NCBI GenBank assembly: GCA_034520965.1
Contig: JAXHMY010000001.1
Location: forward strand, 480,001-544,000
Reading direction: 5' to 3'
Source: Spirochaetia bacterium
GTDB lineage: Bacteria > Spirochaetota > Spirochaetia > DSM-16054 > Sediminispirochaetaceae
DNA: 64,000 nucleotides
Below the pieces are notes generated by a model. It was given only the letters and a program-made list of their open reading frames with translations, did not search any database and had not been told where the DNA came from. Shown one piece after another: positions 48,958 through 61,594 of the stretch (the stretch's first letter is position 1; each line of letters starts with the position of its first letter). The position numbers were made by a program, and so were the translations under genes.

Positions 48958-51486
48958 TTAGATATCTATTATTCCAAGCCTGGTAGCATAATGAACTAAC
49001 TCTGCAGCGTTTTTCACCTTAAGCTTGCGAAAAATGCTGGTACGGTGATTTTCAACCGTACGGTAACTTATATAAAGGCTTTGAGCAATTTTTTTTACCG
49101 ATAAACCCTCAGCCAAAAGGCGCATAATCTCCTGCTCCCGCGCAGTGAGGGACTCATAGTCGTTGTCCTGTACATCGTAGAATCGCTGGGGATGTTCCAG
49201 GGCCTTTTGAATTATCACCTCTAGGGTAACTTGATCAAAAAAATACTCGCCCCGCAGCACCTGCTTTATGCCGTCAATAAGGCGCACAGGTGAAGTCTCT
49301 TTGGTCATATACCCGCTCACTCCGTTACTGACCGCTTCCAGCACATAATCACTGCGGCTATACATACTAAGTATGATAATTTTGAGCAGCGGATATTGTT
49401 CACGAAGCTGAGAAACAAGCTCAACCCCTGAACCATCGGGCAGCGAAATGTCAAGAACCACCACGTCGATATCGGAATCTCTTAAGATTTCGCGGAGTTC
49501 TTCGACAGTCTCCGCCTCCCCACTAATAACAATGTCCTTATCTCGCTGCAGAGCAACTTTTACACCATCTCTTACAGGGGGGTGATCATCTACCAGTACC
49601 ACACGAATTCCACGTAGAGTAGACATACTATCGCCTTCCTTCATTAAGGGGGTTACGATAGCATGCCCCTCCCAGAACCGTACGTGCGCAACTAACGCAT
49701 ACGGCTCCTAGCACTAAACATTCGACCATTGCCAGATGTCTTTGCAAATTCTCGGTCTTGGTATTAATTTCCATATCTTTTCAAACGTCTCCCAATTTAT
49801 CTTGTGCTTCTGACCTCTCCGCCTTAGAGCCTTATACAGCGTATATCTGATGTATTTATAGAACTTGTACAGCCCTATTAGATTTCCGTTGACCCCATAG
49901 TAATTGTAGTGCCCAACCAGTTTCCGGCTTAGTGCTCTCACAATCTCCATGACAGGTCGATGCATATTCCATCTAATCCACTGTTTTGCGCTCTCGCGTT
50001 TAGCCTTCAGCTTCTTCTTGCTAGTGAGGTGCAGAACTGTGTACTTACCAGTCCTTGTACTGGCATTCACGTGGGTGAATCCAAGAAAATCAAATGTCTC
50101 CTTGGTTCCTTTGTACCTTCCAAATGGAATGATCCTTGTCTTCTCTTCGGCCACCGTTAGCTTGAACTTTGCAAGCCTTTTAAGCATCACCTCGTAGAAT
50201 CTTTTCGCATCATCCTCGTACTGGAACAATACCACATAGTCATCCGCATAACGGTATAAGTATGCCTCACCCCTCAAACACCTTTTCACTACCTTCTCAA
50301 ACCACAAGTCGAGTACGTAATGAAGATAGACGTTAGCCAGCACCGGCGAAATAAGCCCTCCTTGCGGAGTCCCCTTGTCGCTGTCGCTGACGTTCCCATT
50401 CTCCATGATCCCCGCCTTGAGAAATCTTACTACATAACGGATGAAATTCTTGTCCTGTATATCGTTCTCAAGAAACTTCACCAGCCATTCGTGGTCGACA
50501 TTGTCAAAGAACCCTTTGATGTCGGCATCAAGAATATAATTTACCTTCTTAGTCATGATCGTTTGGTTTATCTCCCGTATCACATCATGACAATTCCGAT
50601 TCGGCCTGAACCCGTAGGAACAGTCCAGAAACCTCGGCTCGTATATCTCAGTCAGCACCTTCGCCATTATTCCCTGTACGAGTTTGTCCTCATACGCCGG
50701 GATTCCCAGCGGTCGTACCGTGCCATCCGTCTTGGGTATGTATGTTCTTCTCACCGCCTGCGGTCTGTAGCTGAAGGATTTCATCCGTCCAAGCAATGCA
50801 TCCACATGCTCTTCCAGTCCGGACTCATAGCTCTCCTTCGTCGCTCCGTCTATGCCTGCGGCTTTTCCTCTGACCTGCGCTCGATGCTCCGCCTTCAGGT
50901 TCTCCCTGTTGACGTAGTGCATGAGCGTCTGCATCTTCGCGTGACTCTCCGACAACCTCCTCAATTCCCCATAACTGTTTTCCACTCTTTCAGAACCTCC
51001 AGTGTTCCTGGTGTTGGCCACAAGAAATACGTTTAATGCCCAGACCCCTTCGCTCCACCGACTTTCACCGGTTTCATCGCTACTATGAGTCTGTCCGATT
51101 GCTGATGCCCCATACAGGTTTCTTGACTCCTCGCCTTTACGTCCCCTATTAGTCCAACGGACAGGACATCAGCCCTCCCAGGTACGCTTGATCTACCTTG
51201 TGTGCTCGCCATGCTCTCAGACCCCGTTGGGTTCTCCGCACTCTCGCCTTTTTCCGAGCGCTTCTTGCTGGTTGCTGTCACATGAAAAACATCACCACCC
51301 AATCTTTATACTAACGAGGCTCAATCACGTTCAACCTTTCGGCTTATGGCTCTCACACTCCTTTACCTACGCTTAAACCTCACCTCACGGCTTCGGCTCC
51401 AAGGCTAAGTACCGGCTGTTGGCTAGACTTTACCGGACAGGGTGTCTCACCCTGCTATATATCAAACGCCGAACTGGCGCACTCAT
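48958..51486 (-). CDS. NarL/LuxR-type response regulator interrupted by a group II intron; exons 51483-51486 and 48958-49613
   Basis: Ligated ATG A|GT GGA ATT CGT gives MSGIRVVLVDDH (660 nt, in frame); LDISLPDGSG, LTAREQEI, TVENHR. Confidence 0.88.
49614..51482 (-). mobile_element. group II intron, apparently complete (1869 nt)
   Basis: 5' GTGCG at 51482; domain V GAGCCGTATGCG..CGCACGTACGGTTC (49675-49707); 13-bp domain VI stem with bulged A at 49620; 3' end AC at 49614. Confidence 0.92.
49714..51021 (-). CDS. ltrA: group II intron reverse transcriptase/maturase without endonuclease domain
   Basis: AAGIDG, RPLGIP, SYGFRP, DADIKGFFD, GTPQGG, RYADD, FDFLGF, X-domain GHYNYY. Confidence 0.93.
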   Translation of the reverse strand: MANTRNTGGSERVENSYGELRRLSESHAKMQTLMHYVNRENLKAEHRAQVRGKAAGIDGATKESYESGLEEHVDALLGRMKSFSYRPQAVRRTYIPKTDGTVRPLGIPAYEDKLVQGIMAKVLTEIYEPRFLDCSYGFRPNRNCHDVIREINQTIMTKKVNYILDADIKGFFDNVDHEWLVKFLENDIQDKNFIRYVVRFLKAGIMENGNVSDSDKGTPQGGLISPVLANVYLHYVLDLWFEKVVKRCLRGEAYLYRYADDYVVLFQYEDDAKRFYEVMLKRLAKFKLTVAEEKTRIIPFGRYKGTKETFDFLGFTHVNASTRTGKYTVLHLTSKKKLKAKRESAKQWIRWNMHRPVMEIVRALSRKLVGHYNYYGVNGNLIGLYKFYKYIRYTLYKALRRRGQKHKINWETFEKIWKLIPRPRICKDIWQWSNV

Positions 51487-51531
51487 GCACAAACTATATC
51501 ATATTTTTTTCTTTTATGGTTCACTATTAAT

Positions 51532-52353
51532 ATGAACATCGATAACTTAGACACAGTCCTGCCGTATATTGTACAGTTAGCCCAGTCCGCCGGAAAGCTG
51601 CAGAGGGAATATATAGATTCCTCCGTTACAATGCAGAATAAAAGCAGTCAGGTTGACCTTGTAACCGAGGTAGATCAACGCTGCGAAGAACTGATTTCCT
51701 CGAATTTGCATACTAAGTTTCCCGAGCATCAGATTTTAGGCGAGGAAGGGGGTTCTCAGGCAAGCACAAGTAATTCTCCGTACAAATGGGTTATTGATCC
51801 GCTGGACGGAACCACGAACTACGTGCATCAAGTTCCGGTGTTTGCAACCTCGATTGCGCTGTTAAAAGACACTACACCGATCCTCGGAGTAGTTCATAGC
51901 GAACCCCTTAAGCGAACCTATACAGCTATTGCCGGGCAGGGGGCGTTTCTTAACTCGACTCGGATCCATTGCTCGGAGACCGGGGATATCAATGCTTCTG
52001 TAGTAGCCACGGGCTTTCCCTACGACCGAGCCACCTCAAAGAAAAACAATGTGAACTACGTTGCCCATATGATCCCACGGGTACGCGGAATTCGTCGTTT
52101 AGGTGTGGCAGCTCTAGATGCCTGTTTTGTAGCTGAGGGAGTTTTTGATGCCTACTGGGAACTGAAAGTACGCCTGTGGGATATCGCCGCAGGGGTATTA
52201 ATTGCTCGGGAAGCGGGTGCAGTGGTACACTACCTCGCCGGTAGGCAGCCATACACCTACGATATACTTTGCGCAGCCCCTACTCTCCACGAAGCTCTGC
52301 TCCAGGAACTACTTACAGTGGATACAGATTTTTCCAGTTTAGCGAGCACCTAG
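51532..52353 (+). CDS. suhB: inositol monophosphatase family protein
   Basis: DLVTEVD, ILGEE, WVIDPLDGTTNY, TGFPY, WDIAAG. Confidence 0.85.
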   Translation: MNIDNLDTVLPYIVQLAQSAGKLQREYIDSSVTMQNKSSQVDLVTEVDQRCEELISSNLHTKFPEHQILGEEGGSQASTSNSPYKWVIDPLDGTTNYVHQVPVFATSIALLKDTTPILGVVHSEPLKRTYTAIAGQGAFLNSTRIHCSETGDINASVVATGFPYDRATSKKNNVNYVAHMIPRVRGIRRLGVAALDACFVAEGVFDAYWELKVRLWDIAAGVLIAREAGAVVHYLAGRQPYTYDILCAAPTLHEALLQELLTVDTDFSSLAST

Positions 52354-58606: not shown

Positions 58607-61594
58607 CTACATCGGCACAATAATACGCTTTTGCCCCTTGCGGCCGAACAGCTGCTCGGCTTTATCCAACACCTTCGATTCGGCCATCGCAACCCGTACA
58701 GCTTTGCCGCTGTTCTCATGCAGAACCGCAGCTTCACGCTTTACATCCGCTACCTTTACCTCAAGCATCTCATGCCGGGCGCTGCGGCGCAGCTCGTCGC
58801 TTATACCGTACAACCGGCGCTTCAACCCAACAACGCTCTTCTCACCAGGAGATTTAGGACGAGTATCTTTACCAACTATCGCAATAATCGCTTTTTCCAG
58901 ATCGTCTTCGGTAACCCCCTCCTGAGCTATATGAGCCAAACCGTCTGCGTACACCTGCAGCGACTTCTCTACGCTCGGGTCGCGGTAAGAGAGAAAAGAA
59001 AAGATACCTTCAAGCCCGTGGGTCGAGGCGGCTGCACCGTAGGCTCCGCCCTGCATACGAATTTTCTGCCATAAGTAATCGGTTTTCAATAGGTGTGCGA
59101 CCAGAATGTAAGCTGCATATCCCGGTTTTCCGTACAACAGACCCGGAAGAGCCATACCACTGTATCCGACTGAGGCCGGGACTTGCAGGCTCTCCCAATT
59201 ATCCTGATAAGGCTCTATCTGCGTACCGTCATCAGAGACAAAATGGTCAAAGCTGCGGGTCGATTTGCTTCCATCAGAGGAAAAATCGACTAAGTGTTTG
59301 GCCATTTGAGTATGAATGCGGCCCAATTGCTGTCCATCTGCACTCATGTTTAACATCAGCCTCTGGCGGGTCATAACCTTATCCCGCAGGGTCTTCAGCT
59401 CCTGTCCAATCGCTTCAACCTCGGCTCCTGCTTGGGTCGGAAGGGTGGTAAGAAAGAGCAGCTGCTCGATCCCGCGCCATTCATCTTCAATCCGAATAGC
59501 CGGCTCCAGGTGAGCTCCCGCCCGCAGGGTAGAGAAGGAGTGTCCCGCCGGAATAACCGCTGAACGCATGTCGTTTCTAAACTCAGTTAAAACCTCCCAT
59601 AGACGCCGGCGGTCTTCTACCTGGGCGTGCTGTAAGAGGTTAAAGGTCAAGTCAAGGGCTTCCTCCAGGGACCCCTCAAGACACTTTAAGCGTAAAAATA
59701 GATAACCTAGATACGAGTCGGCGGCACCGACCATTGGGCTTATATCCAGATAGGGGAAAAGCCCCCCCATTTTAAGGTTTTGACGGCGTGCAACTTCGTC
59801 ATAAGCAACGCCGGGCAGGCCGGTGGAGGTTAGCATCCGTCCCAGCAGAGGCAGCAGCAGCCGCTCTCTCTCTGATAACTCGGTGATATTAAAGGCGAAG
59901 TCGATGTAGATTATTCCATTGGTAAACAAGTCGTGGGTAAAACCTGGAATACCATCTACCTGAGTATCACCAGTCTCAATCACCGAAATATCCTCAGGCA
60001 GATCCTCGCGGGATAAAATAGGAATTGTTTCAAGGGCAGATTGCGGATCGGGGGCATTTTGAAACTGCTCAAAAGCCTCAAGATCGCCCCGCAGCTGCTG
60101 CTCCTCCACCTCATCCATCTGTGAGTGAATTTTGTCGACAGTTTGTTGAATCTCTTTATCCAGATCCTGCAGGTAGTCCCCGTCCGGCTCGACGATAACC
60201 GTACTACGATGGGTGTTATTCAAAAGCGAGCGCTCAATCAGTTCTTCAAAGTAATGGGGATTCGTATCATACTCCTGTTTTAGCCTTTCCATGTGAGGTG
60301 TAAACTCGAGGGTGGTACGGGGTTCCCCGCCATGCAGCCACCCCCGCAGGGCTTTGTTCATCATCCGCAGGCCAAAGGGTGCTCCTCCGCGGATTTCCCG
60401 GTTCTGAAACTCAACCCGGCGCAGGGTTCCCTTGACTACATCAGAGGGAAGCCCCTCCTCGACAAGCCTCTTCAACTCTCCCAACACCAAATCCTCAAAC
60501 TTACCCGCGTTCTCCGGTTCAATACCCCGAATACCAATGGAAAAACTCATATCACGGATATCAGTTTCCAATCCGCTAACCGGAGACATATCCTCACCCA
60601 ATTCAGTATCATTTATCAATTTCTGCAGGGGAGTTCCCGGATGTCCGATCAAAGCACCACTTAACACCTGCATCGAGAGCAGGGTGAGTGGATCGTTGAT
60701 CACACCGGTGCGCCAGTTGATTGTAATGGTGGGCTTCGGCTTTTCCTCCCCCTCGACTGCCGGACCCTTTACTGTAAACAACTTCGGCTCCTGCCAAGAC
60801 GGCTCGTCAGCTATATCGGGTGCCGGCTCTCCAGCCCCAAACTCGGACAAATAGTTTTTCTGCAGAAACTCCAGCTGCTCTTCAGTGGGAATATTGCCGT
60901 ACATAAAAAAACGACAGTTGGCCGGGTGGTAGTACTTTTTATGGAAGTCTACAAACTGCTCATAACTCAACTGCGGAATTGCCTGGGGGCTTCCGCCCGA
61001 TTCATGTCGATACTGTGATTTTTCAAACAGGGAACGGTACGACCAGTCACCGACGATTGAATCATAGCTTGAAAAACTTCCCTTCATTTCATTAAAGACA
61101 ATTCCCTCAACCTTGAGGCTCCCATCCTCCTGTGGCACAAAGCGGCGCCCCTCCTGCAAAAAGAGCTCTCGTTTTAGTAAAGGGAAAAAAACCGCATCCG
61201 CATACACGGACATTATATTATAGTAATCCTTTTTTACCGTACTGGCGGCGGGATACACCGTTTTGTCGGGATAGGTCATGGCATTCAGAAAGGTATTCAC
61301 ACTCCCCTGCATCAGCGCTAAAAAAGGGTCCTTCACCGGATAGTGCCGCGAACCCGAAAGCACGGTATGTTCGAGGATATGGGCAACCCCGGTGTCATCG
61401 GCGGGGGGAGTTTTAAAAGCAAAGGCAAATAAATTCTCCCGGTCCTCATTATAGAGGTGATACACCTCCAAACCGGTAAGGTCGTGCTGCAGATGGATAC
61501 CACTGCCGTGGTACTCCTCGAGAGAGTCAATATTGGTAACGGTAAACCCGTGTAGTTTATCTCCAATTTTTAGTTGAGTCTGTGTTGTGGACAT
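58607..61594 (-). CDS. M16C insulinase-family metallopeptidase (PreP-like)
   Basis: GVAHILEHTVLSGS, FLNAMTYPD, VFNEMKG, IRMQGGAYG, SYRDP. Confidence 0.9.
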   Translation of the reverse strand: MSTTQTQLKIGDKLHGFTVTNIDSLEEYHGSGIHLQHDLTGLEVYHLYNEDRENLFAFAFKTPPADDTGVAHILEHTVLSGSRHYPVKDPFLALMQGSVNTFLNAMTYPDKTVYPAASTVKKDYYNIMSVYADAVFFPLLKRELFLQEGRRFVPQEDGSLKVEGIVFNEMKGSFSSYDSIVGDWSYRSLFEKSQYRHESGGSPQAIPQLSYEQFVDFHKKYYHPANCRFFMYGNIPTEEQLEFLQKNYLSEFGAGEPAPDIADEPSWQEPKLFTVKGPAVEGEEKPKPTITINWRTGVINDPLTLLSMQVLSGALIGHPGTPLQKLINDTELGEDMSPVSGLETDIRDMSFSIGIRGIEPENAGKFEDLVLGELKRLVEEGLPSDVVKGTLRRVEFQNREIRGGAPFGLRMMNKALRGWLHGGEPRTTLEFTPHMERLKQEYDTNPHYFEELIERSLLNNTHRSTVIVEPDGDYLQDLDKEIQQTVDKIHSQMDEVEEQQLRGDLEAFEQFQNAPDPQSALETIPILSREDLPEDISVIETGDTQVDGIPGFTHDLFTNGIIYIDFAFNITELSERERLLLPLLGRMLTSTGLPGVAYDEVARRQNLKMGGLFPYLDISPMVGAADSYLGYLFLRLKCLEGSLEEALDLTFNLLQHAQVEDRRRLWEVLTEFRNDMRSAVIPAGHSFSTLRAGAHLEPAIRIEDEWRGIEQLLFLTTLPTQAGAEVEAIGQELKTLRDKVMTRQRLMLNMSADGQQLGRIHTQMAKHLVDFSSDGSKSTRSFDHFVSDDGTQIEPYQDNWESLQVPASVGYSGMALPGLLYGKPGYAAYILVAHLLKTDYLWQKIRMQGGAYGAAASTHGLEGIFSFLSYRDPSVEKSLQVYADGLAHIAQEGVTEDDLEKAIIAIVGKDTRPKSPGEKSVVGLKRRLYGISDELRRSARHEMLEVKVADVKREAAVLHENSGKAVRVAMAESKVLDKAEQLFGRKGQKRIIVPM

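Follow-up and report, generated by a model that had tools for sequence, protein, structure and literature searches.

A class E-like group II intron in spirochaetes that probably homes just behind promoters and carries a candidate back-up start in domain VI

Bacterial group II introns are described with a small set of target specificities, which in the available part of a 2015 review comprise homing sites, terminators and attC sites (PMC4424553). Start or stop codons are the sites of a IIB1/CL1 clade that includes Avi.groEL and EcKTE56.groEL; it is marked by a 300-700-nt 5'-subterminal insertion in domain I and a CL1 reverse transcriptase (RT) with a C-terminal endonuclease, and the accessible text gives its way of colonising as unknown (PMC12584367). 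Class E RTs, according to the excerpts at hand, measure ~430-445 aa and lack an endonuclease (PMC3753933, PMC4244168). For the corresponding IIE introns, to which a Syntrophomonas wolfei intron is assigned, exon-binding site 2 (EBS2) is dispensable for self-splicing (PMC3753933, in the part seen). Here, we describe a group II intron in a window of 64,000 nucleotides from a Spirochaetia bacterium (assembly GCA_034520965.1, contig JAXHMY010000001.1, positions 480,001 to 544,000), where it lies directly behind the start codon of a NarL-type response regulator gene. We consider it likely that this is a recently spread class E-like intron that homes just behind sigma-70 promoters and holds a back-up translation start in its domain VI. 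New here is the promoter start as an intron target, since start-codon targeting is already published, as far as the accessible text of PMC12584367 goes, for the unrelated IIB1 clade. Promoter-start targeting at leaderless genes is a stronger result than the back-up start.

The intron follows ATG-A of the regulator at 51482-49614, exactly where a sequence-only reading of the window had placed it. That reading had also claimed that splicing restores the regulator, and joining the exons in silico indeed gives a 219-aa frame beginning MSGIRVVLVDD. The intron-free relative it had proposed to look for at this locus exists as well: the same-genus genome G002 carries the empty allele, in which ...GATATAGTTTGCACATGA runs straight into GTGGAATT, i.e. 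ATGA is followed by GTGGAATT. A TGnTATAGT box 6-7 nt upstream of the regulator ATG is kept in the intron-free orthologs of G002, G005 and G008, and no Shine-Dalgarno sequence (SD) precedes the native ATG in these three genomes or in the window copy. The site has no recognisable -35 element, and our promoter scan of the window, which demands a -35 match, skipped it. As the divergent neighbouring gene starts about 45 nt away, the regulator gets no transcript from an upstream operon. At lepA, the second host gene, the empty site TTGATG-17-TATAGT-7-ATGA is kept in the same three relatives; an SD is likewise absent, and the sequence of the 7-nt spacer is variable. A TA-like box (TANNNT) ~12 bp before the start marks leaderless genes, which account for 3.9% of spirochaete genes in the section of PMC3160421 available. 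Both the regulator and lepA have such a box at this distance and no SD, and both look leaderless. Thus, the intron replaces no native ribosome-binding site, and the "replacement" signal of the sequence-only reading is better described as an added one. The 5' exon of the precursor would be about AUGA, ~4 nt long.

Three copies of the intron reside in the genome that holds the window (G000), each directly behind ATGA: at the regulator, at the start of lepA on contig C2 (product MNTPKEF, Pfam GTP_EFTU) and at a mid-gene site on contig C3, where the intron lies inside a coding region with its ATG out of frame and is broken by an insertion sequence (IS). The expectation that the 5' exons of all copies end in ATGN is therefore borne out by three ATGA ends. 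The wider claim of insertion at start codons holds for two of these three as real starts and fails at four of nine close-clade sites, which have no long in-frame open reading frame (ORF). What the three sites share beyond ATGA is TATAGT-N6/7-ATGA, an arrangement present at 18 of 28,322 genomic ATGA including these three. Seven of the 15 unoccupied TATAGT-N6/7-ATGA sites start a frame of at least 100 codons, compared with 18% of all ATGA, which argues that the arrangement is a real start signal in G000.

The association extends through the lineage. We gathered 85 distinct 5' junctions from the best 80 of 146 genome loci, the best 80 of 554 metagenome loci and additional genome searches, and analysed 80 after excluding two end-to-start joins (L093, L140), a doubtful stub (L198) and two loci with flanks of <24 nt (L003, L099). 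Defining a -10 box as a TAnnnT hexamer 9-12 nt upstream of the junction that agrees with TATAAT in at least 4/6 positions, we found one at 35 of the 80 sites, a partly non-independent count because a few sites are homologous (L108, L110), against 6.8 ± 2.5 in 2,000 shuffles (maximum 18); in 30 of the 35 the box lies at 10-11 nt. An extended TG accompanies 19 of the boxes, and TTG stands at a 17-nt spacer in five; no other spacer between 6 and 25 has more than one. In the close clade the box is present at 13 of 16 sites, compared with 4.7% of ATGA; two of the exceptions lack it (L173, L174) and the third matches at 3/6 positions (L199). In an RT tree of 159 sequences rooted on a Sinorhizobium meliloti intron, promoter-type sites turn up in more than one supported subclade, and the ATGA introns group in a single clade (support 0.999). 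Taken together, the primary cue appears to be a -10 box plus ATG(A/G) and not a functional start codon.

Several observations weigh against so general a view. No -10 box is present at 9-12 nt in 45 of the 80 sites, many of which show an SD or an SD-led ATG and one group of which is signal-free; several sites in G053 are known from intron stubs of 26-103 nt alone; and the -35 signal is weak (10/35 versus 4.9 ± 2.1), the window's own site being without it. Insertion might also occur at any ATGA, with the pattern reflecting the survival of harmless copies, given that surviving copies alone are visible and that intergenic or start-proximal sites are less harmful. The three-of-three occurrence in G000 against a background of 0.06% is too sharp for filtering alone; moreover, boxes also precede mid-gene and transposase sites (C3, L181) and the EBS2 sequence tracks the box, so that we regard this explanation as very improbable.

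How the site might be read was apparent from the exon-binding sites. Comparing EBS1 columns with exon positions -1 to -6, we found Watson-Crick pairs in 75, 73, 71, 67, 53 and 54 of 77 introns, where 21-33 were expected. EBS1 reads UCAU(G/A)U in the ATGA clade, and CACCUC or CCUCU where the 5' exon ends in an SD. The window copy has UCAUGU and the C2 and C3 copies UCAUAU, with a fit to the -5 base of the window and C3 sites. A further subclade (L153, L155, L156, L158, L160, L161, L165, L167), with 5' ends TAGCGC/TCGCGC and an anti-AUG EBS1, inserts behind SD-led ATGA without a -10 box. Canonical EBS2-IBS2 pairing (IBS, intron-binding site) at -7 to -12 was tried and rejected as poor, with 3/6 pairs at C1 and 1/6 at C2.

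Instead, the EBS2-position bulge was seen to carry TATA in 22 of 24 introns at promoter sites versus 7 of 36 others; the nominal p of 3e-8 is overstated, as related introns are not independent. Covariation of this bulge with exon positions -12 to -15 is weak. A 3-4-nt shift of register would let its UAUA pair with the box TATA, which we consider likely. If so, the link to the -10 box could be pure base pairing of EBS2 UAUA with TATA, needing neither an active promoter nor RNA polymerase, as the tracking of promoter-type sites by bulge TATA (among non-independent kin) and the C3 copy, inside a coding region yet behind TATAGT, would suggest. Near-identical introns are, however, found at TAGACT, TAGAAT, TACAAT, TATGAT and TATTGT; like promoters, these hexamers keep the first T, the A and the final T constant and tolerate change in between. 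The extended TG and the -35 peak also fall outside any pairing, and the spacing varies from 9 to 12 nt. Pairing alone is hence a possibility of some standing, to which we give less than even weight. Working promoters are suggested as well by the free middle positions together with the TG and the -35 peak, and we hypothesise that the melted non-template strand is captured.

We now turn to domain VI, in which the sequence-only reading had noted an SD, a 7-nt spacer and an ATG in frame with the 3' exon. All three are present, and translation from the ATG at 49626 gives MSTLRGIRVVLVDD, a 222-aa form with the N-terminus MSTLR. The arrangement is conserved in the close clade: the SD position reads AAGGAGG, AUGGAGG or GUGGAGGU, and an SD-like tract stands at 7-8 nt spacing in every variant. 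In the close clade the domain VI AUG stands 13 nt from the intron end; since 13 and 4 are equal modulo 3, it shares the reading frame of the target ATG without exception. A long ORF continues in this frame at five of nine close-clade sites (20% expected, p 0.02), namely the regulator, lepA, a GDPD gene (L172), a 325-aa gene (L095) and a hydrolase (L222, open over 504 aa). The proposal that the domain VI ATG is in frame with each downstream gene thus stands for these five sites and fails for the other four. Outside the close clade, the distant L146 has an SD and an ATG at -13 in frame with an ATG-G target, and in L025, of another subclade, an SD and an ATG at -31 open a long frame. In two close relatives (L095, L201), the strand facing the AUG is mutated and the AUG retained. 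L095 has moreover lost intron nt 144-367, and with them EBS1, EBS2 and EBS3; it should not splice, as all EBS elements are missing, and sits with a stronger SD before an intact 325-aa in-frame ORF. This 1,643-nt copy (L095:1733-3375, also L096), in which 224 nt of domain I are gone and the RT is intact, is located at the start of a lipoprotein-like gene and thereby offers a natural test of the domain VI start. From these comparisons, a back-up start in domain VI is probable.

Other evidence speaks against a functional start of this kind. The four remaining close-clade sites (C3, L181, L201, L219) are not in-frame gene starts: L181 precedes an IS transposase in another frame, and at L201 and L219 the long ORFs begin 268 and 45 nt downstream. 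L003, whose domain VI is of another kind, likewise misses its real ORF. The predicted fold pairs both SD and AUG, with an unpaired probability of 0.01 for the AUG and 19.4 kcal/mol needed to open the stem, and in the ATGA subclade the SD-free fold is predicted ~15 kcal/mol above the splicing fold. Furthermore, L006, L103, L108 and L110 occupy real starts behind ATG(A/G), and their short domain VI has neither SD nor ATG; a back-up start is therefore not required. The sister introns L099/L036, whose target is not an ATG, also have the AUG at -13 and lack an SD at the usual distance from it, so that the AUG may have originated as part of the stem.

These points feed an explanation in which the targeting is real, the domain VI SD and AUG are by-products of a purine-rich stem and protein is made from spliced mRNA only. 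It draws on the stable stem that would bury SD and AUG, the 1-in-3 prior for frame agreement, the AUG at -13 in sister introns with another target, the persistence of short-domain-VI relatives at ATG sites, and the near-repetition of the domain VI 5' strand by the GAGGUG-type SD. What it leaves unaccounted for are the AUG kept opposite a mutated partner (L095, L201), the SD-like tract in all close-clade variants, the in-frame SD and AUG of L146 and L025, and the EBS-less L095 ahead of an intact gene. We rate it as rather unlikely. With regard to the suggestion that unspliced RNA makes a nearly identical regulator, the in-frame SD and ATG stand in its favour, and their burial in a predicted stem costing 19.4 kcal/mol to open stands against it; translation of unspliced RNA from the domain VI AUG is plausible.

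A possible way around the stem is offered by a local hairpin between the domain VI 5' strand and the pyrimidine tract, predicted at -9 to -11 kcal/mol, which leaves the SD free. It can form before the 3' strand is synthesised and would thereby provide a kinetic route to a free SD. As a separate observation, L003, L040, L041 and L051 share a domain VI insertion of about 120 nt across distant branches of the tree, and in L003 this insertion holds an ATG in target register behind AGGAG.

A sister design of domain VI is found in 26 relatives, which have a terminal GUCGAG/CUCGAC hairpin and an SD 20-24 nt from the intron end, all 26 with a complementary pyrimidine tract. Most of their known 5' exons terminate in an SD-like sequence; these introns thus separate the gene's SD from its ATG. 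Their SD-free fold is predicted at a median of 5.4 kcal/mol above the splicing fold (range -1.5 to 9.7), five of the 26 being within 3, and the terminal hairpin would put the SD about 9-14 nt from the exon's own start. The start-proximity count took in the 12 of the 26 that passed a context filter; ten of these have a start within 15 nt whose ORF spans 80 aa or more or runs off the end of the locus (80 aa or more in six), compared with 4 of 25 in the outgroup under the 80-aa rule. An SD bridged by a hairpin has a precedent in phage T4 gene 38. Given this sister design, a selected ribosome-binding role of domain VI becomes more likely across the lineage.

Our proposed sequence of events is as follows. 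As the covariation shows, EBS1 base-pairs with the 4-6 exon bases next to the junction, which are AUG(A/G) in the ATGA subclade and the SD in sister subclades. The box would be recognised by the UAUA of the EBS2 bulge in a shifted register; melting of the non-template strand in an open promoter would assist this recognition or be required for it. The intron would thereby land at about +4/+5 of the promoter and always be transcribed; at leaderless genes such as the regulator and lepA, this landing site would fall immediately after the start codon. Splicing on a 4-nt 5' exon would then restore a leaderless mRNA, and in unspliced RNA the SD-led start of domain VI would alter only the N-terminus (MSTLR for MS). 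The domain VI start may be open during transcription of domain VI, with the pyrimidine tract paired to the 5' strand, and be closed by formation of the branching fold. In the unspliced RNA, the native AUG also starts an 18-codon frame that runs into the intron (51486-51430, minus strand); a ribosome on it would cover IBS1 and could delay splicing.

More tentatively, and with slightly less confidence than doubt, we suggest that promoter homing is a fourth target class that mirrors class C, in which domain VI is a two-state switch between branching and ribosome binding and hosts stay on regardless of splicing. An anti-Pribnow EBS2 together with an anti-AUG or anti-SD EBS1 would set the intron at ~+4, turning leaderless genes into SD-led ones. 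The switch would take two forms, an SD with an in-frame AUG in the ATGA subclade and a hairpin-bridged SD acting on the exon's AUG in the SD-targeting subclades.

Turning to the anatomy of the window copy (Table 1), the structural hallmarks of group II introns are present: a GUGYG start, domains I-VI, the AGC triad, a bulged A and an AY end. Rfam models group-II-D1D4-6 (51447-51212, 116.9 bits) and Intron_gpII (49709-49614) match; the domain I model is matched in full from intron nt 36, and the RT ORF follows from nt 462. This ORF scores 370.5 bits against TIGR04416 (cut-off 300) and has RVT_1 as its sole detected Pfam domain. The RT/maturase likely starts at the GTG at 50985, downstream of GGAGG (51000-50996), and is 435 aa long. 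Domain VI folds with a predicted -27.3 kcal/mol (z -4.3), its AUG enclosed in a long stem. The intron is probably an endonuclease-less class E group II retro-intron, a placement with indirect support from L059 and from the nine loci scanned, S. meliloti and Bacillota relatives included, all of which match Rfam D1D4-6; the available excerpts of PMC3552965, PMC5894124 and PMC4028801 hold no material settling it. Regarding the host gene, orthologs of the regulator are present in six of nine same-genus genomes, its top NCBIfam matches reach E 2e-46, every one under its cut-off, and no kinase gene adjoins it.

Table 1. Features of the intron and its host locus; positions are those of the window.
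Feature	Position	Strand	Remarks
Group II intron	51482..49614	-	1,869 nt, GTGCG...CTCTAC; edges set by two differently flanked copies and the empty allele
5' exon ATGA	51483..51486	-	native start codon plus one base; IBS1 core, pairs with EBS1
Extended -10 box TGaTATAGT	51493..51501	-	6 nt upstream of native ATG; putative leaderless promoter, part of the intron target
EBS2-position bulge UUAGUAUAAAGAU	51302..51314	-	holds UAUA
EBS1 UCAUGU (anti-start-codon)	51280..51285	-	pairs with GCAUGA; intron nt 198-203
EBS3 (U)	51219	-	intron nt 264; pairs with exon +1 in 35/42 introns, 14.8 expected
RT/maturase ORF	49714..51021	-	YADD present, endonuclease domain absent
Domain V	49675..49707	-	AGC catalytic triad
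Domain VI	49614..49674	-	61 nt including terminal AC; bulged branch A at 49620
Pyrimidine tract	49646..49652	-	alternative predicted partners: SD in the splicing fold, 5' strand of domain VI in the SD-free fold
SD-like AAGGAAGG in domain VI	49634..49641	-	7-nt spacer to ATG
Domain VI ATG	49624..49626	-	13 nt from intron end, in frame with 3' exon
3' exon, NarL/FixJ-type response regulator	48958..49613	-	REC and LuxR helix-turn-helix
Divergent inositol-monophosphatase-family gene	51532..52353	+	likely ATG (from sequence) about 45 nt from regulator ATG

Of the three copies in G000, the window copy alone has an intact RT. In the C2 copy (L082, C2:355469-357338), RT and lepA are both frameshifted, the lepA frame stopping at 392 aa; these frameshifts are probably assembly indels. 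The RT of the C3 copy is frameshifted as well, and we did not use frameshifted RTs as evidence. The C3 copy (C3:55877-59458; L083/L084/L211) is split by an IS element with ends GTAAGCG...CGCTTAC and an 8-bp target duplication, which we take to be IS66-like; the element has an internal 1.2-kb duplication and a related copy on C7. Its host gene (L211, around 59860-60500) carries a frameshift ahead of the intron; its first 182 aa match no Pfam family, and it was not found in four relatives.

The intron was not found in nine other genomes of the genus. A class-level search gave a match in 10 of 401 genomes including G000, near-identical only in G073, G057 and G053, and the families of G053 and G073 yielded no further copies outside those two genomes. 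A phylum sample of 401 genomes held no copies besides those of G000 and G073, and viral contigs held none. The closest named relatives among the loci examined are Spirochaetaceae and Sphaerochaeta metagenome-assembled genomes, a relative 66% identical occurs in S. wolfei (L059), and the lineage is found in Spirochaetota and Bacillota. Judging from this distribution, the intron is a recent, patchy coloniser. It also travels on insertion sequences: at L006, L103, L108, L110 and L181, several target sites are promoter-proximal starts of transposase-like genes, whose family assignments are our presumption.

Signs of activity were sought in sequencing runs. In RNA run X16, one contig of depth 16 from a close relative (~95% identity) runs from the intron's 3' terminus into its 5' terminus with a full length of exactly 1,869 nt; the same joint was not seen in two DNA runs and the other RNA run examined. 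It fits an excised circle and could also stem from tandem DNA. Among metagenome contigs, the 3' end is joined straight to the 5' end in L140 and via 7 nt ending in ATGA in L093 (1489-1495), which may represent circles or tandem insertions. Contigs with ligated exons numbered zero in runs X1, X3, X16 and X17, where cover at 49506-49606 was zero, so that this absence carries no weight; for another copy in X17, the 30 bases of 3' exon displayed form an open frame, too short to count.

If the proposed reading is correct, it would explain how a promoter-less retroelement secures its own transcription at the starts of genes such as lepA, and a branch-site domain doubling as a ribosome-binding switch would couple splicing to translation. 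The 4-nt triphosphorylated 5' exon would be an unusual splicing substrate. For annotation, it follows that gene callers put such starts inside the intron, and the system suggests targetrons that insert at gene starts without knockout. A lineage that reads a -10 box plus a start signal would add a target specificity beyond those in the available part of PMC4424553. We found no literature on -10 or promoter targeting or on a ribosome-binding site in domain VI of group II introns, Michel et al. 2007 lying outside our coverage.

Compared with class E/IIE introns (Sy.wo.I1, Cl.be.I2), the spirochaete intron shares an endonuclease-less RT of similar size and has a relative in S. wolfei (L059), and its 4-nt 5' exon fits IIE since EBS2 is dispensable for IIE self-splicing; it differs in its target, no promoter or start-codon preference being mentioned for IIE in the accessible text of PMC3753933 and PMC4244168. 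With the Avi.groEL clade it shares a position in or beside the initiation codons of ordinary genes, the dependence on host transcription and the restoration of the gene by splicing. In contrast to that clade, it has neither the domain I insertion nor an endonuclease, and a reading of the -10 box and a domain VI SD/AUG go unmentioned in the portion of PMC12584367 available. On the sequence evidence, its start-codon habit is of separate origin from that of the IIB1 clade. Membership in class C was considered and rejected, as no terminator-like site precedes the junction and an EBS2-position bulge is present. There is nonetheless a likeness to class C (IIC): judging from the excerpt of PMC4424553, class C introns are likewise endonuclease-less, use a short IBS1 and reach many loci by targeting a gene-expression signal. 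The spirochaete intron differs in its EBS2-position bulge, its EBS3 and its Rfam D1D4-6 match, and it sits at the start of the transcription unit instead of its end.

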